Shown here: piece by piece, positions 24,788-41,047 of the stretch
How positions within the stretch are numbered: the stretch's first letter is position 1
How the letters are laid out: each line of letters begins with the position of its first letter
DNA from: Candidatus Binatia bacterium
Lineage (GTDB): Bacteria > Desulfobacterota > Binatia > HRBIN30
DNA length: 64,000 bases
NCBI GenBank assembly: GCA_038245295.1
Contig: JBBRSP010000019.1
Location: 1-64,000, forward strand
Direction of reading: 5' to 3'
Position numbers and translations under genes: made by a program
The notes under the pieces: generated by a model
What the model was told of the DNA's origin: nothing
The model's input: the letters and a program-made list of their open reading frames with translations, nothing else
Database searches by the model: none

Positions 24788-25081
24788 CGTGATCCCGGCG
24801 AAGGAGACGGTCATAAAATCAAAGTGGAGCAACGTCATCGCGGTGAAAACCGGGATCTCCCAAAGTGCTGGAAGCCTCAAGAGCTGGCGAGATACCGGCT
24901 TTCGCCGGTATGACGGATAGGTCTGCTCGGTTTCAAATATGGTCTCCGAGCATCGACATACTCGAAAGCCGGAATCTCCCAAGCCTTCCTCAGTTTCCAA
25001 TCGAGGAGATACCGGCTTTCGTCGGTATGACGGAAGTGTTTGCGCAGTTTCAAAGATGAATCAGAGAAACTCGACAGGCTC
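24788..25081. repeat. CGTC-type REP/MITE-like composite (GTCATACCGGCGAAAGCCGGTATCTC family)
   Basis: Multiple gagataccggctttcgccggtatgac and gtcatcccggtgaaaaccgggatctc-like hairpins; homologous to 55104-55320 and 40961-41047; sits between convergent genes. Confidence 0.85.
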
Positions 25082-25175: not shown

Positions 25176-26477
25176 TCAAAACGTATACTCGAGCTGCCCG
25201 GCGTAGATCGTGTCGGCGCGCACGCCGTCGCGGTTGAGCGGGAACTGGAAGCTTGTGCTGAACACGGCGTTGCCGAAGGGGTTTACTTTAAAGCCGATGG
25301 CGGACTGGTAGACGTCATCGTTCACGCTGTCGCGTTTGTCGTCGTGGAAGCCGATGAAGTCGGAGAACACGGTGAGCCAGCGTGTGGCGAGTGCATCCCC
25401 ACCGACGATCCATTGGCTCTGGCTGACGTCTTCGCTCGAGCGGAAAGCGTGGCCAAGGTTGAGGTGCGGCGAGAACCAACCGAACTGCTTCGAGACAATC
25501 AACCATGGTGTCAGCGTCGGGTCGTGGAAGCCGAGGAAGTTGTCGGCGTTGCCGGTCGGTAGCGTCACCACCGAACTGAACGCGAAGTTAGCGTACGACG
25601 CATCGTAGAGATGATACTTCAGGCGCAGCAGCAGATCGCCCGTGCCCCAAGCCGAATCCGAGAAGCTGTCGGTGGCGCACTGCAGGTTGCCGGGCGAACA
25701 CAGGCGCCCTGATGGGGCCGCCAGTGTGTTGTTCGGCGGCTGGGTGACGAAGGCCGCAACGCCGCCGTTGTTCTTTGAATTGATGATGGTGCTGACCGCC
25801 GTTCCACTCATCTGAGCACGGGCGACAGAGAGGGCTATGCTGGCGTCCATCCGATCGGTGAGGCCAAAGGCGGCCGTCAGATATAACACGTCGAGGCTCA
25901 GGGTCAGACGCAAGTCCGTCTGCAACACATCATCGGCAAACTTCTTGCGGATACTCGGCGGCAACAGATTGAGTTGGCTCGTCGACACCGCGGGTTGGGT
26001 GAACCGCAGATGGTGTAGCGAGTCACCTTCGAGGGTATCGAAGTCCGTGTGCGAATACGAAACGCTGATGGTCGCCGTGCGTTTGCCGAGTGTCGCCGCG
26101 CGTTCGGCAAACCCCGAACCGAGGCTTTGTGACACACGTTTGAACGTGTCGACCTCCGGATCCCAGCCAAAGCGAAAGGCACCGCTCGCCGAAGGCACCG
26201 GTGCCAACGCATGCGCCGTGCTCAGGGCGGCCGAGAGGGAGCGAAATTGATCGGCGAACTGCAGCGGAAAGGGACCATCGAAGCCGGGACGCACCGTCGT
26301 ATTCAAATGCCCGCCAAAGAGATTGGGAACGCGCTCGTCGAGAGAGATCGACCGCCCCGGACGCGGCGCCGCCAGAACCAAAACCGTCGCTGCCACGGCA
26401 ATCGATGCCCAGCAGCGTGGGGTGGTTCCGAGCCGGCCACGACGGAGCGTGCCGATTTGTGTCGCCGAGCTTCTCAT
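25176..26477 (-). CDS. Outer-membrane beta-barrel protein (transporter/SphA-like), module copy 1
   Basis: Signal peptide; SLGSGFAERAATLG, GTGDLLLRLKY, TLPTGN..NFLG, PHLNLG; C-terminal YAGQLEYTF beta-signal; ATGA overlap with caspase gene. Confidence 0.85.
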   Translation of the reverse strand: MRSSATQIGTLRRGRLGTTPRCWASIAVAATVLVLAAPRPGRSISLDERVPNLFGGHLNTTVRPGFDGPFPLQFADQFRSLSAALSTAHALAPVPSASGAFRFGWDPEVDTFKRVSQSLGSGFAERAATLGKRTATISVSYSHTDFDTLEGDSLHHLRFTQPAVSTSQLNLLPPSIRKKFADDVLQTDLRLTLSLDVLYLTAAFGLTDRMDASIALSVARAQMSGTAVSTIINSKNNGGVAAFVTQPPNNTLAAPSGRLCSPGNLQCATDSFSDSAWGTGDLLLRLKYHLYDASYANFAFSSVVTLPTGNADNFLGFHDPTLTPWLIVSKQFGWFSPHLNLGHAFRSSEDVSQSQWIVGGDALATRWLTVFSDFIGFHDDKRDSVNDDVYQSAIGFKVNPFGNAVFSTSFQFPLNRDGVRADTIYAGQLEYTF

Positions 26478-28369
26478 TTGGCGAATTTCCACCCCTGTCC
26501 TTCGCGCACCAGCAGTTTCGGCAAGCGCGCCTCGGTCTGCTGCGCCTTACCGCTTTCGCGATCGATGAAACGATCGCGCCGGGTGAACGACAAGGCGACA
26601 CCGCTGTCGCGCGCCTCAATCACGATGTTAGACAACTCGACGCGCAGGTCGGTCGCGGCTTCCCAGTAGTCGCGATGCGCTTGCCGCTGCTTGTCGGAGA
26701 ACGAACCATACAGCGCCGCGACACGCTCGATGCTCTTGGCCTCCTGGGCCAGGCGATACTCTTCCAGAAAGGCCCGCACGCTGGCGTCAATCTCCGACGC
26801 ACTGGTCGGCGTCTCTTCGGCAAACGCCGGTGCGACGACCAGCAACGACACCTTGTTCCATACGTCGTCGAGGAACGATTGCGGCGCCACCGGAGTCAGT
26901 GGTTGTGCAGCGCTCGGGCTCGGCGTTGGGCGCCCTTCATCGACCACACCCTCGGCCTCGAGGAGCAGGCGGTAGGCGTTGACGCTGGTGTTGCTAGGCT
27001 GTTCGATCGACTCACCCTCTTCCGCCGATACTTCTACCGGCAAACGACGCAACGTCTTGCGAACGAGCTTCTTTTGCAAGTCGAAAAACTCGCTCACTTT
27101 GCCTTCGACGCTATCAGAACCTTCCTGCACTCCGGATTCCGTATTGATGATCTGCGCGTCGATACGGATTGATTCGCCGACGACGTTGTAGGAACCGGTC
27201 AACAACCGGCCGATGCCGAGCTTCTGGGCGACATCGAGTTGGCCACGATCGGCACTACCGGCCCGGTCGATCAGATCGGGGGAAAAGACGCGCAGCTTGC
27301 GCACCTTGCTCAGCTCGGTGTTGAGCGCCACCCGCACCGCCTTGCCGACCCACTCGTGTTCCTTGTCCGGACGCAGGCTCTCGAACTCCATCACGCCAAT
27401 CGTATTGACGGCAACGTTCTTGCCGTTGCGCGGCGGCGGGATCACCGGCATCACCACTGTAGCCGCGGCGCTGCCCGACGGCGCCGCCAACATCAGATCG
27501 GTGCCTTCCACCTTGGAATACGGATGTTGCGCGTTGGCCGTCAGACGCGGCACTTCGCGTGCCACGAAGCCGAACAGCTCCGATACCGTGAGGATTCCAT
27601 CATGGTTGGCATCACCGCTGCCGCTCAGCCCTTCGAGTAACGATTGTGTGAACGCGCCGTGCTGTAGGGTTTCCGGTTCGTGCGCCACCTCGCCTGGCTT
27701 GGCAGCGGCAAGGAGGAAAAAACCATCCCCGGTGGACAATCGACTCCCGGGATCCTCGGCAACGACCAGGCCGGCCTTGCTGAAGCGCGCCGCGCCGGCG
27801 TGACAGGTATCGAGCATCAGGACGGCGGCGCGCACGTTGCGCCGGATCGAACGCACCATGTCGTCGAAATCCGACATGCGGAGGCCGGCGGTAACCAGAT
27901 TCTCGGCCGTTGCGTCGGCCGGCAGGAAGTAGAAGGTTCCGGCGGCGCGATCTTGCACGCCGTGGCCAGCCAGAAAAATCACCACGACATCATCGAGATT
28001 CGCTTGCGCCAGAATACGTCCGAGAGCACCGAGCACGCTCTCGCGGGTCACTTTCGTGTCCGTCAAAACTTCCGCCTTGACCTCTCCATAGAGCGGGCCG
28101 TTGGCTTGACGGCGCAACAACTCGGCGATCGCTGTGGCATCCGCGTCGGCAAAGCGAAGATTGAGCTCGCTTGCTTTGTACTTGCTGACGCCGACGGAGA
28201 GCACCCACAGCGTGGGATTTGCCGCGGCGCGCGCCGGCTGAACCACGGCGACCCGGGGCAAATGAAACGCCGGCGCCTGAAACCCACCTGGGTTGAAGAC
28301 GGACCACGCCGTCAGCAGGCCAACCGCAGCTCCTACACCCGTTATTGCCAATCGCGTCCCCGCCCTCAT
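26474..28369 (-). CDS. Exported caspase-family (peptidase C14) protease + FlgO/TolB-N-like domain + NTF2-like C-terminal domain, copy 1
   Basis: N-terminal hydrophobic segment; LWVLSVGVSKY...LRFADADA; FLAGHG and LDTCHAG His-Cys dyad; GDANHDGILTVSEL; IGVMEF...LTGSYNVVGESIRIDAQII; LEEYRLA...WKF. Confidence 0.9.
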   Translation of the reverse strand: MRAGTRLAITGVGAAVGLLTAWSVFNPGGFQAPAFHLPRVAVVQPARAAANPTLWVLSVGVSKYKASELNLRFADADATAIAELLRRQANGPLYGEVKAEVLTDTKVTRESVLGALGRILAQANLDDVVVIFLAGHGVQDRAAGTFYFLPADATAENLVTAGLRMSDFDDMVRSIRRNVRAAVLMLDTCHAGAARFSKAGLVVAEDPGSRLSTGDGFFLLAAAKPGEVAHEPETLQHGAFTQSLLEGLSGSGDANHDGILTVSELFGFVAREVPRLTANAQHPYSKVEGTDLMLAAPSGSAAATVVMPVIPPPRNGKNVAVNTIGVMEFESLRPDKEHEWVGKAVRVALNTELSKVRKLRVFSPDLIDRAGSADRGQLDVAQKLGIGRLLTGSYNVVGESIRIDAQIINTESGVQEGSDSVEGKVSEFFDLQKKLVRKTLRRLPVEVSAEEGESIEQPSNTSVNAYRLLLEAEGVVDEGRPTPSPSAAQPLTPVAPQSFLDDVWNKVSLLVVAPAFAEETPTSASEIDASVRAFLEEYRLAQEAKSIERVAALYGSFSDKQRQAHRDYWEAATDLRVELSNIVIEARDSGVALSFTRRDRFIDRESGKAQQTEARLPKLLVREGQGWKFAK

Positions 28370-28656
28370 ATGGTTGCTGCCGCCGGCGCATTGTTCCACG
28401 CCAGACAAGGCAGGCAACCGGATCTACCAACCCAGGGATGCATTGGAACCCCAAGATCTGGCAACGGCTCTTCCGTCTGCGTGGCTGCGGCTCCGCCACC
28501 CCGATTACCGCCCATCACGATCCACATTTTGCACTCCACGGCGTTTGGACTGCGAGCTTCTAGACCCAATACCCTTGTCGGTGCAATAAAATGGTTACAC
28601 AGGGCATCCCTTCCAGCGGAAGGTTGGATTGGAACGCCCAATGACAGGAGTATGGA

Positions 28657-29607
28657 TTGAGTCAAACGGCGCGCCTGGGCGGCGAACCGCGCGAAACACT
28701 GGAGCGGCTTCAACGCTGTCTGGCCGGCGACGCCGCTGCCATTGCCTGGTTCCAGGAAACCTTCGGGGAACTCATCTACGGCTATCCGGTCCGAGTCTAC
28801 CGCACAGCGGTCGACGAGGCCGGGGATTTTTACGTTTTCGCGTTCGACAACGGTCGTATTTTCAGACGCTTACGTACATTCGAGGGGCGGGCGCCGCTGC
28901 GTGCGTACCTGCTCGGGTTTGTGCTGGACGATCTGGTTCTCGAGTGGAAGCGTGGGCGTCACGAGGTGGAAACTATTTCCTTGGAGGATATCGGCGAAGT
29001 GGCACAGCCTGACTCAGCTCTGGCACTCTCGGACGACGACGGTGCGGAAGACGGCATGCGCTTCGGCGACCTGCTGGCAGGCCTTGAACCGTCCAAAGCC
29101 GTCGTGCTGAAACTCCTCTATATTGAAGATTGCGAGATGACCGCGCCGGATCTCGACCTCCTCGCCCGCAACTCAGACCGCAGCCTCGCCGAGGTCATTC
29201 AGGGAATCGACAATTTGCGCGCCGTCGTGCGCGAACGGGAGTCCGACTTGAAACGCGACGAGGATGCCCTCGACGCGGTCCAGGCCTGGATCCAATTGTA
29301 CGAACGGCGCGTCCAACGTATCTCGGCCGAGCTCGCCGACACCGGGCCGAAGCTGGCCCAGGCGCAAAGCCTGACGGCAGAGTTGCAAGAGTGCCAGCGC
29401 AAGCTGCACAAACGCCGCCAACAACGCGACAAGCTGCTGTTCCGCGCCCGTCGCAAGAAAACCACGGCGCCCTACAAAGAAGTAGCGGCGATCCTGAATA
29501 CGACGGTCGGCAACATAGGATCTCAGATCGCCCGTTTGCGGCGCGAGTTGGCCGATGCTCTCGGCGACAATGCGCGTCGCTGGCTTGGAGGGGACAACGA
29601 TGACTAA
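28657..29607 (+). CDS. Atypical ECF-like sigma-70 factor, copy 1
   Basis: AGGAG RBS, TTG start; LQRCLAGDAAA...FEGRAPLRAYL...LEWKR region 2; YKEVAAILNTTVGNIGSQIARLRREL region 4 HTH. Confidence 0.85.
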   Translation: MSQTARLGGEPRETLERLQRCLAGDAAAIAWFQETFGELIYGYPVRVYRTAVDEAGDFYVFAFDNGRIFRRLRTFEGRAPLRAYLLGFVLDDLVLEWKRGRHEVETISLEDIGEVAQPDSALALSDDDGAEDGMRFGDLLAGLEPSKAVVLKLLYIEDCEMTAPDLDLLARNSDRSLAEVIQGIDNLRAVVRERESDLKRDEDALDAVQAWIQLYERRVQRISAELADTGPKLAQAQSLTAELQECQRKLHKRRQQRDKLLFRARRKKTTAPYKEVAAILNTTVGNIGSQIARLRRELADALGDNARRWLGGDNDD

Positions 29608-30199
29608 CCAGCGCTCAACGAGGATCGATGCCTGCCCGAGTGATGAATCACTCACGGCCTATCTGACGGCTAGTCTCAGCCCGGACGAGAACCACGCCGT
29701 CGATTCGCATGCCCGTCAATGCGACGACTGCGCTCGGGTGCTGCAAACCGTCTCGGCGCGCCTGCGTTTAGCCGACGAAATTGCCATGCCGATCCCGTTC
29801 GACGTTCGCCAACGCGCCACGGTCGCGACGGCCGCGCCGGTGCGGGCGGCCGCATCGGCCGGCACATGGCGGGATCTGATCGGTTACGTGACTGCGCTTT
29901 TGCGGCCACCGGTGTTCCTGCCGTTGGCGGCAGCGGCGGCTCTGTTGTTGTTCATCGGTACGGAGACGCGCCAAAGTGAACCGGTGCGTTCGGTACCACC
30001 CATTGAGCAGCAGACGACGTTGCGGATCGCGGCGCGTGAGGTTTTGGTACGAGATCAACCGACGACCCGCGGTAGCGTCCTTGCCACCTTGAATCGCGGC
30101 GCCACCGTTACCTACCGCGGCGAGGACCGCGACTGGTTACGCGTAGCACTGGCGGACGGCAGCGAAGGATGGATCGAACGCGAGGCCCTCGATCGTTGA
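29600..30199 (+). CDS. Anti-sigma factor: zf-HC2 Zn finger - TM - SH3b, copy 1
   Basis: CP..E.L.AYL...HARQCDDC; TM FLPLAAAAALLLFIG; VLVRDQPT...VLATL..G...WLRV...EGWI; overlaps sigma stop. Confidence 0.88.
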   Translation: MTNQRSTRIDACPSDESLTAYLTASLSPDENHAVDSHARQCDDCARVLQTVSARLRLADEIAMPIPFDVRQRATVATAAPVRAAASAGTWRDLIGYVTALLRPPVFLPLAAAAALLLFIGTETRQSEPVRSVPPIEQQTTLRIAAREVLVRDQPTTRGSVLATLNRGATVTYRGEDRDWLRVALADGSEGWIEREALDR

Positions 30200-30269
30200 G
30201 TAACCGATCGAGGTACAACATCTTGCCTTGCTTTCCCTACACTTGCACGCCTATTCTCGGCGCGTCGCA

Positions 30270-31505
30270 ATGAATCGAATCCGTTTCGCACCGGTCCTGC
30301 TGGCCGGCTTCGTTGGGCTGCTCGTCGCACCGCGCGCCGAGGCCCTGGCGGCGCGCAGTTTGTACTACTGTCAGCGCACGGTCGTGCGTGAGACCAGCAA
30401 GTACCTGAACGACACCACAGTTGCCCTCGACATTTGCCTGACACGGCTGACACGCTTGCAGATCCTCTCCAGTGCGCCCGTCGACGATGCCCTGGCGATG
30501 TGTCTCAAATCCTTCCGCAAGCTCGAGAACAGCGATCCGAATAAGACGCCCAAAGGCCGCATGAGCGGCAACATCCTGAAGAAATGCGACCCGTCGTCGA
30601 GCAGTGTCGATCATACCCTCGCCGACGTTCTCGGCCCCGGTTCGGCAGAGGCCCAGCCACTGCAGGTCGCCCGCCTGGGCAGCTGGTGTCGTAACTTCGG
30701 CGGCGACGGCAGCATCGACAGCGTTCAGGAATGGATCGACTGCCTGGCGGCGTCGCACTACTGCACCGCCGCATCGTACACCGCCGCTCGTTACCCGCGT
30801 GTGTTGGAATGGTTCAGCGCCATGCGCCTGCTGCTCGAAGCCCTGCCGATTGTACCTAGTGATGCACTCGGCGCCTTGGATGCGGCGACGGCAGCCATGG
30901 ATGTGGCGGCAACGGAGGGAGTTGTCGATCCGCGCTGCGGACGCAACGACTTCCCCGCTACGGGACAGTTGTCGTCCCTGGTCGACGGGGATGACGGCAT
31001 GCTGCGCCAGGGTGCGCCGCTCGACTACCGGGACGAAGGCAACGGAACGATCGTCGATCTCAACACCGGTTTGGTCTGGGAGAAGAAAGTCAGTCTGGAC
31101 GGCGTTGCCAATTCGACCCTCGAACAGGATGGCGACAATCAGGTCACCTGGCTGGACGCCCTGCAACACGTGAGCGTTCTCAACGCCAACAACTTCGCCG
31201 GCCACAATGATTGGCGGTTGCCCAATGTCCGCGAGCTACGCAGCATCGTCGACTACGAGCGCCTGAACCCCGCCGTGAGCGACCCGTTTCATCTGGCTGA
31301 TAGCTGCACCGCTGCGTGCGGCGACCCGCTCGATGTCGGCTGTAGCTGCACCGCGGCTGGGGACTACTGGTCATCGACAAGTGTTTCCTCGACCAGCACA
31401 AACAGCACGCCGAGTGCCTGGTACGTCTCGTTTGCCAATGGCTCGTGGGCTCAGGAAGACAAAGCGACCCAACTCTACGTGCGTGCGGTGAGGACGGGAT
31501 GGTAA
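30270..31505 (+). CDS. Secreted DUF1566 (Lcl) protein with Cys-rich N-terminal domain
   Basis: Signal peptide ending AEA; PATGQ...DDG...YRDEGNGTIVDLNTGLVWEK...DWRLPNVRELRSI...YWSST...VRAVR. Confidence 0.88.
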   Translation: MNRIRFAPVLLAGFVGLLVAPRAEALAARSLYYCQRTVVRETSKYLNDTTVALDICLTRLTRLQILSSAPVDDALAMCLKSFRKLENSDPNKTPKGRMSGNILKKCDPSSSSVDHTLADVLGPGSAEAQPLQVARLGSWCRNFGGDGSIDSVQEWIDCLAASHYCTAASYTAARYPRVLEWFSAMRLLLEALPIVPSDALGALDAATAAMDVAATEGVVDPRCGRNDFPATGQLSSLVDGDDGMLRQGAPLDYRDEGNGTIVDLNTGLVWEKKVSLDGVANSTLEQDGDNQVTWLDALQHVSVLNANNFAGHNDWRLPNVRELRSIVDYERLNPAVSDPFHLADSCTAACGDPLDVGCSCTAAGDYWSSTSVSSTSTNSTPSAWYVSFANGSWAQEDKATQLYVRAVRTGW

Positions 31506-32737
31506 ACTTCACGACAATCCTCCGTCGCACCGTGGCACCCGGCCTAGTTGGCTTGGCGCTCCTGACCGCCCTCCCCTGGACGGCAACGGCGTCGCCACAG
31601 CGCACGCTCTATACCTGTCAGACGACCGTGGCGCGGCAATCCAAAAAGTATATCGCCGCCGTCGCCAAGGCGTTTGAGATCTGCCTGCTCAAAGCCTCGA
31701 AGCTGGCAATCAATAGCAACAACAGTGTGACCGGCGCCGCCGACACGTGCGCGCGCGCGCTGGCGGGCCTGGCAGGTACGGGCACGACCTTGCCGCCACG
31801 CGAGACGATGACCGAATCGATTCTCGACAAGTGTGATCCCAGCAGCCCCGGGGTCGAGCACACCCTGGGCGACCTGCTGGGCAGTGGCGCCGGCGTCTCC
31901 CAGCCGATATCAGCGGGTAATCTAGCGCGTTGGTGCACTGGTTTCGGCGGTGATGGCTCGCTTGATTCGGCGGCCGAATGGGTCGACTGCATCACGACGG
32001 CGCAAGAGTGCAATCTTTGGGGCAGCCTTGCCGGCCGTTACCCGCGCGCCCTCGAGTGGTTCGAACAGATTCTGCCGGTCATGCAAAACATTGCCCCGTT
32101 GCCGATCGACGCCATCGACACCCTTCTTGAGGCGGATCAAGCCCTCGAGGGTCCCGGGAACGACAACATCCCGAACCTACGATGTGGGCCCTCCAGCCTG
32201 CCGGCGTCCGGGCAACTGGTCTCGTTCGCCCCTGGTGACGACGGACAACGGCGCACCGGAATGCCTCTGGCCTATCTCGACAACCACAACGGCACGATCA
32301 CCGATCTGAACACCGGTCTGACGTGGGAGAAGAAGGTCGGTATGGACGGCATGCCGAATGGCAATGATCTCCACGACGCCGACAACGTTTATCCATGGAT
32401 CGAGGCGTTCAACTTCGTCGCCCTCCTCAACGCCAACAACTTCGCAGGCCGCAGTGATTGGCGCGTACCGAACATCAAGGAGCTCGAGACGCTGGTCGAC
32501 TACGGCGCCGGAATTCCGACTACGCGCCCGGAGTTCCACGGCGTCAATTGCGGGCCGCTGTGCACAGATCTTACGGATTCGAACTGCAGCTGCACCTCCT
32601 ACGCCTCGCTTTACTGGTCCTCCACCTCCACGGAGGGGCCGAAATACGGCAAGGAAGTTTCCTTCTACGACGGCTCGTCCCTCGGCTTCTTGAAGTCTGT
32701 CCCCTTCCACGTCCGCGCCGTCTACGGTGGCAAGTAG
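31499..32737 (+). CDS. Secreted DUF1566 (Lcl) protein, tandem paralog
   Basis: Shares LY.CQ.TV.R...KY, CDPSS..V.HTL.D.LG, WC..FGGDGS.DS..EW.DC, RYPR.LEWF and the Lcl motifs with 30270-31505. Confidence 0.88.
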   Translation: MVNFTTILRRTVAPGLVGLALLTALPWTATASPQRTLYTCQTTVARQSKKYIAAVAKAFEICLLKASKLAINSNNSVTGAADTCARALAGLAGTGTTLPPRETMTESILDKCDPSSPGVEHTLGDLLGSGAGVSQPISAGNLARWCTGFGGDGSLDSAAEWVDCITTAQECNLWGSLAGRYPRALEWFEQILPVMQNIAPLPIDAIDTLLEADQALEGPGNDNIPNLRCGPSSLPASGQLVSFAPGDDGQRRTGMPLAYLDNHNGTITDLNTGLTWEKKVGMDGMPNGNDLHDADNVYPWIEAFNFVALLNANNFAGRSDWRVPNIKELETLVDYGAGIPTTRPEFHGVNCGPLCTDLTDSNCSCTSYASLYWSSTSTEGPKYGKEVSFYDGSSLGFLKSVPFHVRAVYGGK

Positions 32738-32941
32738 TCCGTCTCTGCAGCAAAGTTCGGAAATTATCCGTCTCTGCTGGCGGAGGGCGCCCGAATGACA
32801 CTGCGAGCCGACATCTTGGATTTCGACGGCGAGGGTGTGCAGCGCCTCACCGACTCGGCGGAGTATATTCCCCTCGCGGACGCCGAGTTCCCGCGTACAG
32901 CCGAGGCCACGGGCCAAAAAGCTCCGCTGCCCGATTGATCC

Positions 32942-34207
32942 CTAGAACGTGTATTCCACTTGCCCGCCGTATGTCACATCGGCGCGCAATCCATCACGGT
33001 TGAGCGGAAACTGAAACGTGCCGCTGAAAACCAGATGGCCGAACGGGTTCACCTTGAACCCAACGGCGCTCTGAACCACGTTGTCGTTCACGCCATCGCG
33101 TTTGTCATCGTGGTAGCCAAGGAAGTCACCGGCCAGAGTGAGCCACTCGGTGGCCATGAAGTCTGCGCCGGTTGTCCACGTTGCCTGACTCACATCGGTG
33201 CCGCTGCGGAAGGCATAGCCAAGATTCAGATGTGGGGAAAAACGCCCGAAGCGATGCGAAGCGATCAGCCCCGGCGTGAATGTCGGGTCGTGGAAGCCGA
33301 GAAAGTCTTTGGCATTGCCGGTCGGCAATGTCAGCACGGCGGAAGCTGCTAGGTCGGCCCATTCCGTATCGAGGAAGTGCCACTTCGAACGCAGGTAAAT
33401 ATCGCCTGTGCCAACCGCTTCTTCGTCGAATCGATCGTGGACACAATGGAAGTCGTGCTCACAGGCACCCTGACCCGTCGTGACCAGGCCTGGCTGATCG
33501 TAAGTAAAATAAACCCCTTCATCGCGGTTTGGATCGAGAATCACCGCGTTCGCCGAGCCGTGGATGTGCGCCCGATTGATCGACAGGGATAGGCTCAGGT
33601 CAATGTTGTCGGTCACTCCGTAAGCGGCGGACAGAAACAACATATCGAGCGAGAACGCCAGGTCGATCTGCGTCTTCAACAAATTGTCGGAGGCCCTTCG
33701 GCGGTCCTGCGGCGGAAGCTTCGCCAGATACGCGCTGATCAGCGCCGGTTGCAGGTCGCTCAGTCCGCTCAGCTTATCCCCCTCCAGTGTGTTGAAATCG
33801 GTATGGGTAAATGCCGTGCTGATCGCCCAGGTGCGCGCCCCCAAGGTTTGTGCACGTTCGGCCACGTTCGGTCCCAAACTCTGCGAGCTGCGCACATAAC
33901 TATCGAGCTCGTCATCGAATTCGAAACGAAAGGCGCCGGTCGACGAGGGAATCGGCACCTGGGCCCGCGACGCAGCCAGGCCGGCCGACAGGCCGCTGAA
34001 CCGATCGGCAACCCGCGGCCGCTGCGCGTCCTTCGGGGCGGCAAAGGGTGAGATCGAAGTGCTCAGCACACCGCCGAAGAGCTCGGGAATGACCTGATCG
34101 AGCGGCTTGGCCGCGGCCGCGTTTGAGGCCAGGATCAACCAGCCAAAGATGAGCAACGGCACAAACGCGGACGGCGTCGAACGCCAGGGTTGTCGCGCTC
34201 CCCTCAT
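32942..34207 (-). CDS. Outer-membrane beta-barrel protein, module copy 2
   Basis: Paralog of 25176-26477 (shared HTDF.TLEGD, FLGFHDPT, HDDKRD.VND.V.QSA.GFKVNPFG, FQFPLNRDG.RAD); ends YGGQVEYTF. Confidence 0.85.
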   Translation of the reverse strand: MRGARQPWRSTPSAFVPLLIFGWLILASNAAAAKPLDQVIPELFGGVLSTSISPFAAPKDAQRPRVADRFSGLSAGLAASRAQVPIPSSTGAFRFEFDDELDSYVRSSQSLGPNVAERAQTLGARTWAISTAFTHTDFNTLEGDKLSGLSDLQPALISAYLAKLPPQDRRRASDNLLKTQIDLAFSLDMLFLSAAYGVTDNIDLSLSLSINRAHIHGSANAVILDPNRDEGVYFTYDQPGLVTTGQGACEHDFHCVHDRFDEEAVGTGDIYLRSKWHFLDTEWADLAASAVLTLPTGNAKDFLGFHDPTFTPGLIASHRFGRFSPHLNLGYAFRSGTDVSQATWTTGADFMATEWLTLAGDFLGYHDDKRDGVNDNVVQSAVGFKVNPFGHLVFSGTFQFPLNRDGLRADVTYGGQVEYTF

Positions 34208-34208
34208 C

Positions 34209-36032
34209 TCACGGCTTTCCGGCCATCCGCCAGGTATCACCAAGGCGCACGGCCAAACGAGTCAGACGCACTTCGAGCTCGACGGGTTTGCCGCTCTTCT
34301 CGTCGATGAATGAATCTCGGCGCGTGTAGGAAACGATGAAGTCGTCACCCTGAGGCGTCAGCTTCACGTCGGCGATCTCGACCTTGAGATTGCGGCTGCT
34401 CTCGAAATATTGCCGCAGCGTATCGCGGCGCCGCTGCGGGAACTCGACGTAGAGCGTCGCCAGTCGATCGAGGTCGCGCGCTTCCAGGGCCTCGCGGTAC
34501 GACTGCATCAAGGCGAGTACTTCGGCTTCGCGCGGCTCGCCGCTCGTTTGCGCTTCTGCCGTTCCGATGAACCAGCCTGACACAAGCGGCAGCCCGTTTT
34601 CCAACGCCGAGCGGCGGCGTGGTGCTGTGCGGGCACGCGGCGTTGCGGTTGGCTTGGCCGGCGGCGCATCAACGAGGTCTTCCGATTCCAACAGCAGACG
34701 GTACGCATTGACGTCGGATGTACTTTTCTTGCCGATCGACTGTCCTTCCTCGGGTGATGGATTGACGCGCAGCCGGCGCAACATGCTCAGCACCAGACGC
34801 TTTTGCAGGTCGAAGAAATCGTTCAGCTCGCCTTGCACACTGTCGGACCCCTCTTGCAGCCCACTTTCGGCGTAGATGATGCGGGCATCGATCCGAATCG
34901 CCGTTCCAACGACGCTGAACGATCCCGTAACCAGGCGATCGATCTGCAGCTGCTGCGCGGCGCTCAGTTGGTCGACGCCGCGAGTCTTGATCAGCCGATC
35001 GATCAGCTCTGGGGCATACACATTCAAGGCCCCTACCTTATTGAGTTCTGTGTTGAACGCCACCCGCAAAGCGCTGCCGACCCAGTCATGATCGGTATCG
35101 TTGCGCACATTGCTGAATTCCATGACGGCGATGGTGTTCGGCACGGCAGCAGCGGAGGAATCCGCCTTGGTCAGAGACGGCCGCGGCAGAACCGTCGCGC
35201 CCGGGCGTACCGACACCAGGCGCAAGTCCGTGCCCTCGACCTTGCTGTAGGGGTGCTGTGTATCCGAGGAGATCTCTGCAACCGCTCGCGTAACGTAGCC
35301 GAAGAGCTCACTCACCGAGACAATCCCGTCCCCGTCCGCATCGGCCTTGCCCTGGAGACCTTCGAGCAGGGCATAGGTAAACGCTCCATGCCGCAGCGAC
35401 GGATACTCCTTCGACTCTTCGCCGGGTTTGGTCGCAGCCAGCAGGAAGAACCCTTCACTCGCCGTCAAACGCGCCGCCGGATCGTCCATACTAACCAGAC
35501 CGGGAGCACCAACACGCAAGGCGCCCGAATGACAGGTATCCATCATCAACACGACGCCACGCACGCTCTGGCGCACGACGCGCAGCATTTCGTCGAAGTC
35601 CGACATGCGCACACCGGCGGTCACATGGTTCTCTTTGGTCGCCGTGGCCGGCAAGAAATAGTAGCTGCCGGTGCTGCGATCCTGCACACCGTGCCCGGCA
35701 ACGAAAATCACAACAATATCGTCGGGCCCCGCCTGTCCCAGGAACCGACTCATACTGTTGAGAATACTATCGCGGGTGACCTGCTCGTTGGTCAGCGTCA
35801 GCGTCTTCGTCTCGCGGTAAATGCCGTTGTCGCGTTGCGTGTCGAAGGCCGTCGAGATCGCTTTGGCGTCGGCGTCGGCGAATTGGAGATTCAGGGCGTT
35901 ATCCTGGTAGCGGCTGACGCCGATGGATAGCACCCACAGCACCGGTTTCTGAGCCGCGGCCGCAAAGGCATCGGGCCGGCCACCGATCACCCCGGTCATG
36001 GTGACAAGGAAAATGATGAGCTGTCCACACAT
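34209..36032 (-). CDS. Exported caspase-family protease + FlgO/TolB-N-like + NTF2-like domain, copy 2 (start uncertain)
   Basis: LWVLSIGVSRY, FVAGHG, MDTCHSG, ADADGDGIVSVSEL, HPYSKVEGTDL, SGLQEGSDSV; N-terminal hydrophobic segment. Confidence 0.88.
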   Translation of the reverse strand: MCGQLIIFLVTMTGVIGGRPDAFAAAAQKPVLWVLSIGVSRYQDNALNLQFADADAKAISTAFDTQRDNGIYRETKTLTLTNEQVTRDSILNSMSRFLGQAGPDDIVVIFVAGHGVQDRSTGSYYFLPATATKENHVTAGVRMSDFDEMLRVVRQSVRGVVLMMDTCHSGALRVGAPGLVSMDDPAARLTASEGFFLLAATKPGEESKEYPSLRHGAFTYALLEGLQGKADADGDGIVSVSELFGYVTRAVAEISSDTQHPYSKVEGTDLRLVSVRPGATVLPRPSLTKADSSAAAVPNTIAVMEFSNVRNDTDHDWVGSALRVAFNTELNKVGALNVYAPELIDRLIKTRGVDQLSAAQQLQIDRLVTGSFSVVGTAIRIDARIIYAESGLQEGSDSVQGELNDFFDLQKRLVLSMLRRLRVNPSPEEGQSIGKKSTSDVNAYRLLLESEDLVDAPPAKPTATPRARTAPRRRSALENGLPLVSGWFIGTAEAQTSGEPREAEVLALMQSYREALEARDLDRLATLYVEFPQRRRDTLRQYFESSRNLKVEIADVKLTPQGDDFIVSYTRRDSFIDEKSGKPVELEVRLTRLAVRLGDTWRMAGKP

Positions 36033-36347
36033 TGAGCGCCACCGGGCGACTGAGTACCCCACGATCACCCGGCAGATATTCCTGCATCGGCGCCGCGTTG
36101 CAACAGACAACCACGGACCAAAGGGAGCCAGATCTCGCGAAAATGTTTCCGCCGCGGAAAAAGATTCGTCACTGCGCAACAAACCGAAACTATCCGTCAC
36201 CAGTACCTTACGGAAGCACGAAGATGGATGTGCAGCAGGGTTTCGGGTTACAAGCCAACCTCAGGTGGATTGACCATCGGTACAACATGCGTGACGGCGC
36301 GACTACGCCGGTGCGACATTGGCCGGGGCATCGCCACAGGGGAGTAG

Positions 36348-37292
36348 ATGGCAGAAAGCACCACGGGGGCCCCGGCGGATCGGGAGTTGTTGCAACGTTG
36401 TCTGGCCAACGAGCCAGCCGCGGTGCAGCAGTTCCAGAACGAATACGGGGAACTCATTTACGGCTACCCGATGCGAGTCTACCGAATGCCGCGCGAAGCG
36501 GCCGGGGATTTTTATGTCTACGCCTTCGACGAGGGACGCGTTTTTCGCCGCGCGCGCACGTTCGAAGGACGAACGACATTGCGAGCCTACCTGCAGGGCT
36601 ACGTGCTCGACAATTTGATCCTCGAATGGAAACGCGGTGAACGGGAGGTCGAAACAGTGCCCTTGGATGCGCTCAACGAAATAGCCGATACGCGCTTTGC
36701 GCTCGAAGCCGACGATGAAATCGACACCGTCAGCGAAGGCGCCAACCTGAGCCAGGTGCTTGCCGAGATGGGCTCGGCAAAACTGGTTCTCTTCAAGCTG
36801 CTCTACGTCGAAGACTCCGATCTAACGGCCGATGACCTGCGCTATGTCCGCAAGGTTTCCGGCCGGCGTATCCCGGAGATTCTCGCCGAAGTCGAACGCC
36901 TGCGCACCATCGTGCGTGAACGCGAAGCCGGCATGAAACGCGTCGAAGACGCGGCCGAAGGCGTCCACGCCTGGATTCAACTGTACCAACGCCGCCTGCG
37001 CCGCATCAGCGAAGACCTTGCCGCCTTGCCGCCGGAATCAACCTCCTCCGCCGTCTTACGCGAGGAGCAAGGCGAGTTCGAACGTAAGCTCGTCTGGCGC
37101 GAGCGCCAACGCGCCGCGCTGGTGGATCGTGCCCAGCGCCGCAAGGTTACCGCGCCATATAAGGAAATCGCCGCCCTGCTCGGTACAACGGTCGGCAACA
37201 TTGCGTCGCAGATCTTGCGCTTGCGCCGCGACCTCGCCGCCCGTACCGGCATGCAATTCGAATCGATGAAGCCCGAGGGAGCCGATGAATAG
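36348..37292 (+). CDS. Atypical ECF-like sigma-70 factor, copy 2
   Basis: GGGGAG RBS; GELIYGYP.RVYR, AGDFYV.AFD, FEGR..LRAYL, AWIQLY.RR, TAPYKE.AA.L.TTVGNI.SQI shared with copy 1. Confidence 0.85.
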   Translation: MAESTTGAPADRELLQRCLANEPAAVQQFQNEYGELIYGYPMRVYRMPREAAGDFYVYAFDEGRVFRRARTFEGRTTLRAYLQGYVLDNLILEWKRGEREVETVPLDALNEIADTRFALEADDEIDTVSEGANLSQVLAEMGSAKLVLFKLLYVEDSDLTADDLRYVRKVSGRRIPEILAEVERLRTIVREREAGMKRVEDAAEGVHAWIQLYQRRLRRISEDLAALPPESTSSAVLREEQGEFERKLVWRERQRAALVDRAQRRKVTAPYKEIAALLGTTVGNIASQILRLRRDLAARTGMQFESMKPEGADE

Positions 37293-37911
37293 TGAACGCA
37301 GTCGGATTGATCCGCCGGCCGGAGCGTCTTGCCCCACCCCCGAGACGCTACTTGCTTACCTCGGCGACGAGGTAGCGAGCCCCGCGCGCGACTGGATCGA
37401 TGCGCACCTCGACGGTTGCCAGCCCTGTCTCGAGGTGACGTTGTCCGGTCACGCGCGCTTGCGCCTCGGCGCAATCCGCGAACCGGTGCCGACTGGACTC
37501 CCTCAGCCCACGGCAGCGGTCCCCCCACAAGACGCTGCCGGACCGGTAGGTGCCGTACCATTCCGCCGCCCCCAACGCCCAACGCGCGTGGTGCGGTATC
37601 TACCGGTTCCTCCTCCACGCTGGTTGATCGCCCCGTTGGCGCTCGCCGCCGGTGCGGTTTTGATGCTCGCTTCACCCAACTGGAACCCGAGCAGCGATGC
37701 TCCACTGACGCGTGGCATTGCTGATTCCTCGACCGTCAAGATTACAGCCCGCCAAGCCGATGTTCGTTCCGATCCCTCTCTCCATGCCACGGTGGTTGCA
37801 CAACTGGCCCGTGGAACGGTAGTGGAAGTCGCCGAGCAGGAACGAGAGTGGTTCCGTGTTCGCCTGGTCGGCGGCGGTGAGGGATGGGTCGAGCAAAGAG
37901 CGTGTCGATAG
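37285..37911 (+). CDS. Anti-sigma factor: zf-HC2 - TM - SH3b, copy 2
   Basis: CP..ETLLAYL...HLDGCQPC; TM WLIAPLALAAGAVLMLA; ADVRSDPS...WFRV...EGWV. Confidence 0.88.
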   Translation: MNSERSRIDPPAGASCPTPETLLAYLGDEVASPARDWIDAHLDGCQPCLEVTLSGHARLRLGAIREPVPTGLPQPTAAVPPQDAAGPVGAVPFRRPQRPTRVVRYLPVPPPRWLIAPLALAAGAVLMLASPNWNPSSDAPLTRGIADSSTVKITARQADVRSDPSLHATVVAQLARGTVVEVAEQEREWFRVRLVGGGEGWVEQRACR

Positions 37912-39422
37912 TTTCAGAGCACCATATCACCATAACCCGCTCAACAGGGCGCTCCCGTACCGGGAGCGTTCTGTTGCTGGCGTTGGCGCTCCTCTGCCCG
38001 ATTGTCGGACCGACAATGGCCGCGGCGGCCGAGCTGCCGGTGATCCGCTGCGGCGAGGGACGACGCGCGCATATCGATCATGACGGAACGGCGTCGTTTA
38101 CCGTCGAGGTTCCGGGTCGACCCGTCGTTGTCATCGATGCAATCGATCCCACCGGCGCCCTCGGTCTGCTGAATGTCGAAGGCGGCGGAGAGGAAAGCTG
38201 TACCGGAAAGATCAGCTTCAACTATTCCGAACCGACCGAGGTGACGGTTCGCGATTGCTTCAACGATGACAGCGGCGACTTCTACGTAAGTGCCAACGTC
38301 ATCTCCGAGGGGCCCGCCAACTGCGGGTCTCCCATGCCCTGTGGGTCGGTCCCTTCCGTGCGACCGGTGCGACAGAAGGGCAAGGTCGATTCCTATACCT
38401 TCTATGCGGCGTCCGGCACTCCCGTCACCGTTCATGCCCGCCCGCTGGCTAACTCCGGAGCCGGCATGCGCGTTCGGGTCTTCGATCCAACCGGCACTCC
38501 GGCTTCCGAGAGCGAGAGTTGCGGCGCCAACCTTACCTTCACGGCGTCGCGCACCGGCGTCTATACAGCCCTCGTTAGCTCCTGCGACAGCCGCAACGGC
38601 GGCTTCTTTGAACTGAGCGTCGAAGCCTCCTCCTGCCCCCGCGGTCCGGAAGTCACTCAATTCGCAATTGCCAAGGCCGACGGGACTCCGTTGACGGCAG
38701 ACGGTTACGACATGTCGGGCCGACCGGTATTCGAACGTGATACCGGCTCGGGGTTCCTGCTCTATCTCGAAGCCCGTCCAGGCTCGAACCGGCAAATGGT
38801 TGCGCCAATCGCGTATGAGTCGGATGCCGGCCTGCCCGATATCCAACTCCTGTTCTCGCGGCCGCTCGGGAATGGCAGTCCAATGGTGTGTGATGCGACA
38901 CGGCCAAACATAGGCGGTGTCCCGGCGACGCCGACTCTCCGCTTTGACGATCAAACTCCCGCGGTTGTCGACGCCATCAACGACTTCGGCTGTCGCTTCG
39001 ACGACGGCACCGGCGCCGCCCGTGGCGTCTCGTCGCAGGACGCCTGCACCTTCTTCCCGAATGGTGATTTTCACTTCGTCGATCCGAGCAGCTCGCTGCA
39101 GTTTTGCGCGCTGATGTCACAGCCCTGGAGCTTCCCGTCGGGCCGCACCATCGTCAAAGCTCGCGCCCGCGACATCGCTGGAAATGTTGGCCCCGAGCGC
39201 GAGATTGCCCTGCAGGTTGGCCCGGCCGTGCCAACGTGTAGCGGTGACTGCGACGGCGACGGCTTGGTGACGGTCGATGAGCTGATCATCGTCGTCCGCG
39301 TTGCCCTGGACCAACTCAGCCTCGATCAATGCCAGCTGACAGATACGAACGGCGACGGCGTCATCACCATCGATGAACTGATCGGCGCGGTGAACAACGC
39401 TCTGATCGGATGCGACAACTAG
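37884..39422 (+). CDS. Secreted protein with PPC-like beta domains and C-terminal dockerin-like pair (start uncertain)
   Basis: Hydrophobic signal; DSYTFYA..G..VTV...GVYTALV; CSGDCDGDGLVTVDEL...DTNGDGVITIDELIGAVNNALIGC. Confidence 0.8.
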   Translation: MGRAKSVSIVSEHHITITRSTGRSRTGSVLLLALALLCPIVGPTMAAAAELPVIRCGEGRRAHIDHDGTASFTVEVPGRPVVVIDAIDPTGALGLLNVEGGGEESCTGKISFNYSEPTEVTVRDCFNDDSGDFYVSANVISEGPANCGSPMPCGSVPSVRPVRQKGKVDSYTFYAASGTPVTVHARPLANSGAGMRVRVFDPTGTPASESESCGANLTFTASRTGVYTALVSSCDSRNGGFFELSVEASSCPRGPEVTQFAIAKADGTPLTADGYDMSGRPVFERDTGSGFLLYLEARPGSNRQMVAPIAYESDAGLPDIQLLFSRPLGNGSPMVCDATRPNIGGVPATPTLRFDDQTPAVVDAINDFGCRFDDGTGAARGVSSQDACTFFPNGDFHFVDPSSSLQFCALMSQPWSFPSGRTIVKARARDIAGNVGPEREIALQVGPAVPTCSGDCDGDGLVTVDELIIVVRVALDQLSLDQCQLTDTNGDGVITIDELIGAVNNALIGCDN

Positions 39423-40960: not shown

Positions 40961-41047
40961 CCTCCGTCATACCGGCGAAAGCCGGTATCTCGCCAGCTTT
41001 CGAGGCTTCCAGCAGGGCTAGTTCCCGGTTTTCACCGGGAGGACGTT
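40961..41047. repeat. CGTC-type REP doublet
   Basis: ccgtcataccggcgaaagccggtatctcgccagc...cccggttttcaccggga, inverted copy of part of 55104-55320. Confidence 0.8.

Follow-up and report, generated by a model that had tools for sequence, protein, structure and literature searches.

A duplicated module of a putative outer-membrane barrel, an exported C14 protease, a sigma factor and a transmembrane anti-sigma in Binatia: apparently a conserved variant of protease-gated ECF signalling

Introduction

The window considered here, i.e., 64,000 nucleotides of contig JBBRSP010000019.1 of an uncultured Candidatus Binatia bacterium from sediment (assembly GCA_038245295.1), carries twice the same set of four genes: a putative outer-membrane beta-barrel and a caspase-like protease of family C14 on the minus strand and, divergently, a sigma factor and its anti-sigma on the plus strand. 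What is the role of such a protease beside a membrane-spanning anti-sigma, and does this gene set belong to a described system? To our knowledge, C14 caspase homologs are common in bacteria, but natural substrates or functions other than defence are known for few of them. The original prediction, made from the sequence alone, proposed that a barrel-sensed or wall-derived cue activates a periplasmic caspase which cuts the anti-sigma and switches on secreted cargo.

The module apparently is a conserved, undescribed variant of protease-gated extracytoplasmic function (ECF) signalling. By analogy, its action would be regulated intramembrane proteolysis, most like that of HetF/PatU3/sigma-HetZ and DdvA/DdvS, without membership of either. 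The whole chain, in which a dedicated periplasmic caspase would make the site-1 cut in the anti-sigma and so free the sigma factor, is given a probability of about 0.6. Cleavage of the anti-sigma at a conserved Arg, taken by itself, is somewhat more likely than the whole chain.

Duplication of the module

The eight open reading frames (ORFs) of the two copies are intact and have the same order and divergent layout. The tight coupling that had been claimed is found: the stop codon of caspase 1 overlaps the start codon of barrel 1 (ATGA), and each sigma gene overlaps its own anti-sigma gene. The identity between copies is 51% for the barrel, 49% for the caspase, 50% for the sigma factor and 35% for the anti-sigma, while the identity at four-fold degenerate sites is 0.32-0.47 against 0.28-0.36 expected from composition; codon positions 1 and 2 are conserved. 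As the four-fold sites lie at, or close to, the background set by composition, the duplication is an old one, and selection accounts for the conservation of the proteins (35-51% identity), as had been proposed. The two copies are old paralogs, and the duplication has been retained under selection.

Two other origins were considered and rejected: (i) a recent tandem duplication, since the four-fold sites are near saturation and the two sigma factors are not sisters in a quick tree, which places them in different subgroups (support from the SH-like approximate likelihood-ratio test only); (ii) an assembly artefact, since a single 16,032-nt contig of sequencing run X1, from which the window sequence itself may derive, covers the two copies without change in depth. 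In another sample (X2), 30/30 bins have depth. No third copy is present in the genome, which is 96.6% complete. Tandem double modules occur in other genomes (loci L034 and L202), and one genome has three or more modules.

Conservation across the Binatia order

The comparison of gene neighbourhoods suggested with the original prediction shows that the four genes recur together across the Binatia order. Order-wide tallies, including the count of exact promoters given below, include the unpublished genome G177, of which the loci L008 and L105 entered neither the alignments nor the counts. Sigma loci were classified after three had been dropped as duplicate or incomplete; the remaining 135 include kin and near-duplicates. 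Among them, 33 combine a C14 protease with a transmembrane (TM) anti-sigma ending in an SH3b domain and 35 a CHAT protease with a soluble anti-sigma, none of these 68 being crossed; a TM anti-sigma without protease in view is found in 3, a soluble one without protease in 19, and 45 have too little DNA to be classified.

A barrel and an NTF2-like domain are also present in 33 of 38 C14 loci. The profiles of the barrel and of the protease match the same 46/52 genomes of the order, and both are missing from the same six; it should be noted that in some genomes the protease-profile match covers the TolB-like/NTF2 part only. The sigma profile has a match, in some cases weak and generic, in 69/301 genomes of the class. 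The sigma family comprises 109 clusters at E<=1e-30, with a few named records outside the class; named members are from Nitrospira, Syntrophaceae, Planctomycetota and Spirochaetota.

The unit is larger than four genes. A fifth gene (37884-39422 in the window) follows the anti-sigma in 30/33 loci, the other three loci stopping at contig edges. Copy 1 is an exception, with two exported Lcl_C genes where the fifth gene usually sits.

The protease

Both proteases match Pfam Peptidase_C14 above the cut-off (E 4.5e-19 and 4.7e-16) and contain the GHG and DTCH(A/S)G motifs, in line with what had been read from the sequence. In an alignment of the best 120 of 295 homologs (copy 2 of the window among them, and numbering according to copy 2), the catalytic dyad His114 and Cys167 as well as Asp55, Asp165 and Glu209 are invariant (120/120). 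The model of copy 2 (mean pLDDT 82.8) is like MALT1 and metacaspases: its top Foldseek match is MALT1 (E 1.9e-11), and in a fold comparison metacaspase 4, GSU0716 and MALT1 are tied at Z 21-22, DdvA having Z 13.0. Asp55, Asp165 and Glu209 presumably correspond to the Arg-binding pocket of MALT1 and metacaspases; the sequence alignment of the C14 domain to these proteins is too weak for a residue-by-residue mapping of the pocket. The protease is MALT1-like and probably active, and it would cut after Arg or Lys if the three acidic residues form a pocket for basic residues. Residues ~230-240 of protease 2 (ADADGDGIVS) form an EF-hand-like acidic loop within the C14 domain, with weak calmodulin matches, and are a possible calcium site.

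An N-terminal hydrophobic segment is found in 104/119 homologs, preceded by a basic residue in 87 of these 104, and a later TM-like stretch in only one. A lipobox-like start is seen in one homolog and a signal-peptide-like start in copy 2. Beyond the C14 domain lies a TolB-like domain (labelled after a FlgO match at E 0.003 and database labels), then a Pro-rich, disordered linker and an NTF2-like domain, which matches many NTF2 folds equally, RsgI9 among them (Z 13.8). A signal-peptidase-like AxA motif precedes the NTF2 domain in 103/120 homologs (shuffled mean 25.7).

The TolB-like/NTF2 unit, and hence the adjoining C14 domain, is placed outside the inner membrane because proteins in which this unit is fused to a cyclase, kinase, TIR or CHAT domain have it behind a TM helix. 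The C14 domain would thus be periplasmic, on the same side of the membrane as the candidate cut site of the anti-sigma. In the opposite arrangement, the anchor would be N-out, the C14 domain and its targets cytoplasmic, and the internal AxA segment would act as a second signal exporting the NTF2 domain alone. This segment does resemble the end of a signal peptide, and the anchors are moderately hydrophobic; but the basic residue before the anchor, the lipobox-like and signal-peptide-like starts, the position of the TolB-like domain beyond a clear TM helix in the fusion proteins and the location of the invariant Arg of the anti-sigma outside the membrane make a cytoplasmic C14 domain highly improbable.

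The sigma factor and the anti-sigma

The original prediction held that both copies keep the zinc-binding anti-sigma (ZAS) motif and the sigma helix-turn-helix. The motifs are present in both, but the profile matches are modest: zf-HC2 is below cut-off, and the sigma-4 helix-turn-helix is matched at E 2-4e-4 by PF08281 and at 42.9 and 35.5 bits by TIGR02937 (cut-off 42.9). The sigma factors are assigned to the ECF type (group 4), their best sequence and fold matches, though weak, being ECF factors. No sigma-3 domain is matched by Pfam in the window sigmas, which have a helical insert of ~135 aa instead. The sigma model has no match at E<=0.001 in the PDB, weak ECF matches ranking first.

Both anti-sigmas (~200 aa) contain zf-HC2, one hydrophobic helix and SH3_3. 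Among 37 TM anti-sigmas, H41, C45 and C48 are invariant and C16 nearly so, the TM helix is found in 37/37, and the gene is at +1, i.e., they are single-pass ZAS proteins of class I. Seven columns are invariant: four in the zinc domain, two tryptophans in SH3b, and Arg143, which is located in the variable periplasmic linker. In an alignment-free comparison, R[ASGD][VILASP] occurs in the linker of 37/37 anti-sigmas against a shuffled mean of 13.9 (maximum 24); as this pattern was derived from the same anti-sigmas, the figure measures position and context and is not a prediction. Arg143 of anti-sigma 2 and the equivalent Arg of anti-sigma 1 are the candidate sites for the protease. The predicted complex of anchor-less protease 2 with the periplasmic part of anti-sigma 2 scored 0.00 (mark 0.32), a value that counts neither for nor against cleavage.

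The CHAT/soluble sister version

In the sister lineages, which use the same sigma family, the protease has an N-terminal CHAT domain without signal. This domain continues into either a TM helix with outside domains or a region of AAA/TPR type. Its anti-sigma has no TM helix and has the invariant Arg in 44/44 sequences, typically as AYR|S. This is suggestive of a protease and an Arg site that would share a compartment in both versions. The 68 uncrossed pairs represent one evolutionary switch, because the C14-type sigmas form one clade. In three distant genomes with the sigma/soluble anti-sigma pair, one related CHAT protein is encoded elsewhere.

Two CHAT-type loci have a separate exported CsgG-like + SH3b protein (L082:4240-5022 and L064:12082-12930), the two domain types of which are divided between the protease and the anti-sigma in the version of the window. 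At L218:709-3280, a broken sigma of the same family has behind it the gene of an unrelated, exported protease of C14-PEGA type.

The barrel and the proposed input unit

The barrel (~430 aa, PF13557-like) has a signal peptide and a terminal Phe. Its assignment as an outer-membrane beta-barrel, taken as evident at the outset, is weaker than claimed by direct Pfam match (E 0.012); it is supported by Atlas neighbours (0.98-0.99) and by relatives, of which 4/8 are above the cut-off. The barrel profile gave 0 matches in a sequence search of solved structures, and no TonB-receptor or FecR match was obtained for the module proteins.

The combination of TM helix, TolB-like domain, linker and NTF2-like domain is also found in proteins without C14, with a cytoplasmic cyclase-like domain (6), a Ser/Thr kinase (3), TIR (1), CHAT (1) or no domain (1). 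A barrel gene adjoins them in 11/12 regions; nine of the twelve had been chosen knowing that a barrel was nearby, and of the three chosen blind two have one. Among CHAT-type sigma loci only 2 have a barrel, and both belong to the 4 loci with NTF2. Since the barrel adjoins the periplasmic TolB-like/NTF2 unit across unrelated output domains, it belongs with this unit and not with the sigma factor, and this association suggests that the two work together ahead of the output. It may tentatively be proposed, at clearly less than even odds, that the pair represents an undescribed, TonB-independent family of cell-surface receptors with interchangeable outputs (cyclase-like, Ser/Thr kinase, TIR, cytoplasmic CHAT, periplasmic paracaspase).

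Another possibility is that the protease does cut the anti-sigma while the barrel is a co-regulated channel or anchor for ligands or exported products, the switch being, e.g., the loss of NTF2 at the AxA motif, calcium or dimerisation. The Pfam family closest to the barrel, which is annotated as a putative channel family, is consistent with this, as are the lack of a barrel in 33/37 CHAT-type loci and the excess of the signal-peptidase-like motif before NTF2. It is nevertheless unlikely, given the co-occurrence of the barrel with the TolB-like/NTF2 unit across unrelated outputs (with the choice of regions just described) and the fact that both barrel-bearing CHAT loci are NTF2 loci.

Fusions of TM helix, TolB-like and NTF2-like domains with a nearby barrel (L222-L233) are often beside dockerin-like genes, and genes for an ECF, for zf-HC2 and for FHA are additionally present in L231. 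An extra stand-alone NTF2 gene with signal peptide lies between protease and barrel at L031:2721-3350 and L054:5363-6043 (minus strand).

Promoter motif and predicted regulon

The motif TGCAAYAAA-N13-GCAYC is found upstream of the sigma gene in 29/29 divergent intergenic regions of the training set, and 5' of sigma in 6/9 held-out C14-type loci. It resembles the TGCAACA/CGTC promoters given for ECF30. The exact motif has 65 matches in 36/52 genomes of the order, against 4 for the reversed control. Enough downstream DNA was available for 45 of the 65, of which 5 precede sigma and 40 other genes. Dockerin-like or fifth-gene domains are encoded downstream of 13 of these 40 sites (10/1500 random positions, 46/2899 genes), and a signal-like start is found downstream of 21 (123/1500 and 749/2899, respectively). 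Among the predicted targets are FG-GAP proteins, a GH9 hydrolase and a haloperoxidase-like protein of the vanadium type; a large number of further sites appear to be chance matches. The proposal that secreted cargo is switched on downstream thus agrees with a predicted regulon enriched in exported proteins.

The genome of the window has one clear motif target, on contig C2. The variant -10 box of copy 2 is common to 3/4 relatives of its subgroup.

Some further sites should be mentioned. The motif at 32745-32774 runs antisense into barrel 2 and may be a relic predating the arrival of copy 2 at this place. Two motifs lie just 3' of the fifth gene in L086, toward the downstream genes. In the CHAT-type loci L064, L069, L071-L073, L075 and L076, the best motif is within the sigma coding sequence, ~280 nt before its end and toward the anti-sigma and CHAT genes; this reflects either a promoter inside the gene or chance similarity of the coding sequence. 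Genome G000 has a very large expansion of exported dockerin-like proteins: the C-terminal domain of the fifth gene matches more than 100 places, and 53 ORFs fit a strict motif.

Proposed mechanism

The proposed sequence of events is as follows: (i) at rest, the cytoplasmic ZAS domain of the single-pass anti-sigma would bind the long-insert ECF sigma, as family and gene coupling suggest; (ii) an outside signal would be transmitted by the outer-membrane barrel and the periplasmic TolB-like/NTF2 unit and would activate the periplasm-facing paracaspase, this being the weakest step; (iii) the site-1 cut would fall after the invariant Arg, ~10-20 residues beyond the membrane, with loss of the SH3b cap; (iv) by analogy, an RseP-type protease would make the site-2 cut, and cytoplasmic proteases would then release the sigma factor; (v) the freed sigma factor would transcribe from TGCAAYAAA-N13-GCAYC promoters, if the motif is rightly assigned to it. 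The genome encodes three M50 site-2 proteases. The predicted targets of the sigma factor are the operon in which it lies, in many cases that of protease and barrel, and dispersed genes of exported proteins (dockerin-like, FG-GAP or hydrolase). The two paralogous copies differ in candidate cargo and slightly in the -10 box of their predicted promoters.

Evidence against the proposed chain

Several points weigh against this chain. All the evidence is comparative. The covariation of protease and anti-sigma topology is a single switch, suggestive and not statistical, and the Arg might be invariant for structural reasons or as the site of a different protease. As to the protease, its topology comes from simple hydropathy, with moderately hydrophobic anchors (15/119 under 1.5), and its mature part has a single cysteine in 116/120 homologs, which would be exposed to the oxidising periplasm. 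As to the promoters, the regulon backgrounds were drawn from the genome of the window and not from the site-bearing genomes. The motif is only modestly enriched in the window genome, with 19 vs 10 sites from score 17 upward and 4 vs 0 from score 20, and its second exact match lacks an evident gene downstream. The motif on the opposite strand, toward the protease operon, is found in only 16/29 regions and not in copy 2, and at least one of the 16 sites is a mere reverse reading of the forward site. Finally, L035, L048 and L060 have a sigma factor and a TM anti-sigma with no adjacent protease in the locus DNA examined.

The last two points bear on a different role of the protease. It may be an output of the sigma regulon that matures or turns over cargo, the anti-sigma being cut by another site-1 protease or responding to a ligand through SH3b. 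The 16 sites toward the protease-barrel operon, the three loci retaining sigma and anti-sigma without an adjacent protease, and a regulon of exported multi-domain proteins with linkers fit such a role. It leaves unexplained that the TM helix of the anti-sigma is lost exactly where the protease is cytoplasmic and that the Arg is invariant in both forms; moreover, positive feedback on the protease operon fits a trigger as well. A role as mere output is thus considered rather unlikely, and the protease is preferably seen as the trigger.

Comparison with known systems

In FecA/FecR/FecI, DegS/RseA/RseP and sigma-I/RsgI, a signal from outside causes a TM anti-sigma to be cut in two steps. Exported proteins with dockerins are the targets of RsgI systems, and RsgI9 contains an NTF2 domain. 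Unlike in these systems, no TonB-dependent receptor, FecR, PDZ or RsgI domain was found, and the proposed site-1 enzyme is a cysteine protease of clan CD. The comparison with FecARI made at the outset therefore fails as membership, there being neither a TonB-dependent receptor with signalling domain nor a FecR-type anti-sigma.

HetF of Anabaena PCC 7120 cleaves PatU3 after Arg117 (T-N-Y-R117|S118; PMC9457339). PatU3 inhibits sigma-HetZ, an ECF with insertions, in a paper on HetZ whose accessible text does not mention HetF (PMC13342950). The window module would share with this circuit a membrane protease of clan CD that cuts, after Arg, the inhibitor of an insertion-bearing ECF, independently of CRISPR. 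The CHAT/soluble relatives share the layout of HetF (cytoplasmic CHAT, TM, outside domain) and the AYR|S-like motif (cf. NYR117|S). The window differs by an exported C14 protease with N-terminal anchor, a TM-SH3b anti-sigma, the barrel and a regulon of exported proteins; the arrangement of cytoplasmic CHAT, TM helix and periplasmic TPR typical of HetF is absent from its protease and present in the relatives only. With the single HetZ model used (NF037964, HetZ_related), the genome yields no match at E<=1.

DdvA of Myxococcus xanthus has a periplasmic CHAT domain (PMC11506125). What the module would share with DdvA/DdvS is a ZAS anti-sigma with one TM helix whose linker is proposed to be cut, ahead of RseP, by a caspase-like domain in the periplasm; DdvA, however, is a fused TPR-CHAT protein, proposed to be autoproteolytic, with a CBASS/CRISPR regulon (PMC11506125). 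In the window the C14 protease is separate, the anti-sigma ends in SH3b, and the neighbours and motif targets are exported proteins.

Operons of an ECF and a metacaspase were noted in 2012 at four loci of M. xanthus and in further genera (PMC3501461). Like the window, they have an ECF, a hypothetical protein (in 2/4 of the M. xanthus loci with a single TM and encoded between sigma and protease) and a C14 metacaspase, and no CRISPR; they are described by gene order, without mechanism, with lipoprotein or PKD neighbours and no barrel listed (PMC3501461).

In Csx29/Csx30/CASP-sigma (PMC10028731) and SAVED-CHAT/PCaspase (10.1101/2023.06.23.546230), a caspase-like protease also acts on a sigma inhibitor or on a sigma factor. 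Unlike the module, these CRISPR circuits are cytoplasmic and triggered by target RNA or cyclic oligoadenylate (PMC10028731; 10.1101/2023.06.23.546230), and PCaspase has a broad specificity and cuts the sigma factor itself (10.1101/2023.06.23.546230). The CRISPR independence that had been predicted is supported: no Cas gene is found among the 20 genes at 19.6-45.8 kb with Pfam or among 12 genes with PADLOC, nor SAVED/CARF or Cas7-11 in the same searches. A regulator of anti-phage defence akin to DdvA/DdvS or to the CRISPR-linked circuits is very improbable. Caspase-sigma links do exist in defence loci, PADLOC gives a generic caspase match (E 3e-12), and one relative of the input unit carries TIR; yet no defence family is found in the 20 genes (Pfam) or in 12 genes (PADLOC) beyond the caspase matches, the presence in 46/52 genomes of the order means near-universal inheritance, and the motif sites precede genes for exported proteins.

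ECF54 is like the soluble relatives in having a carboxypeptidase-regulatory-like domain at +1 and a CHAT-TPR gene nearby; it is actinobacterial, with a subtilase, and no C14, TM-SH3b anti-sigma or barrel is described for it in the accessible text (PMC7826278). In the accessible supplement text of the ECF survey of Casas-Pastor (2021), the terms caspase and C14 occur 0 times, and CHAT domains are listed under ECF54 only.

The novelty asserted in the original prediction stands in part: CRISPR-independent circuits of a clan-CD protease, an anti-sigma and an ECF have been published, while no paper with the exact gene set was found. This literature search, mainly of open-access papers and with incomplete supplements, returned no description of the set.

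Significance

The module offers a named candidate substrate for a C14 protease, a candidate cut site of a single residue, a promoter and candidate targets, and the two paralogs of one genome allow a comparison of cognate and non-cognate pairs. If the proposal is true, clan-CD cysteine proteases would join the site-1 proteases of envelope signalling, and a single principle would cover DdvA, the cyanobacterial HetF circuit and the hitherto unexplained ECF-metacaspase operons of myxobacteria. The module also indicates a regulated programme of secreted proteins in an uncultured lineage and, possibly, a new family of outer-membrane receptors.

Features of the window

The features of the two copies are collected in Table 1.

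Table 1. Genes, predicted promoters and candidate cut sites of the duplicated block (window positions)
Feature	Position	Strand	Remarks
Putative outer-membrane beta-barrel, copy 1 (Phenol_MetA_deg/PF13557-like)	25176..26477	-	Signal peptide; ends QLEYTF; likely ATG 26477; ORF to 26492
Caspase-like protease, copy 1	26474..28369	-	ATG 28369; H136/C189; N-terminal anchor, C14 paracaspase-like, TolB_N/FlgO-like, Pro-rich linker ending in AxA, NTF2-like
Weaker promoter motif, toward caspase-barrel operon of copy 1	28435..28464	-	Score 13.5
Predicted sigma-dependent promoter, TGCAATAAA-N13-GCATC	28581..28610	+	Score 27.4, top site of the genome
Sigma factor, copy 1	28657..29607	+	
Anti-sigma, copy 1	29600..30199	+	ZAS zinc site, single TM helix, linker, SH3b
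Invariant linker Arg codon of anti-sigma 1 (PVR|SV)	29987..29989	+	Candidate cut site
Exported Lcl_C (DUF1566-type) protein D1	30270..31505	+	Candidate cargo in place of the usual fifth gene, copy 1
Exported Lcl_C protein D2	31499..32737	+	42% identical to D1
Promoter motif directly 3' of D2, toward 3' end of barrel 2	32745..32774	+	Score 17.8
Putative outer-membrane beta-barrel, copy 2	32942..34207	-	Likely ATG 34207; ORF to 34243
Caspase-like protease, copy 2	34209..36032	-	607 aa; ATG 36032; ORF to 36200; H114/C167, D55/D165/E209; TolB-like + NTF2-like
Variant promoter motif, GCAACAAA-N13-TCACC, 5' of sigma 2	36174..36203	+	Score 14.8
ECF-like sigma factor, copy 2	36348..37292	+	Helical hairpin insert, residues ~175-264
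Anti-sigma, copy 2	37285..37911	+	ZAS, TM, linker, SH3b
Invariant Arg143 codon of anti-sigma 2 (LTR|GI)	37711..37713	+	Candidate cut site
Fifth gene, exported	37884..39422	+	PPC-like domain, repeated domain of no known family, C-terminal dockerin/EF-hand-like domain

The 16-kb block is bracketed by inverted repeats of 52 nt (96%), at 24866-24917 and 40963-41014, which are like repetitive extragenic palindromic (REP) elements and have a very high copy number in the sequencing runs; they are probably ordinary REP elements. Upstream of the block, positions 22081-24762 (plus strand) encode an exported protein of 893 aa with a weak PKD match and a C-terminal domain that is repeated many times in the genome.

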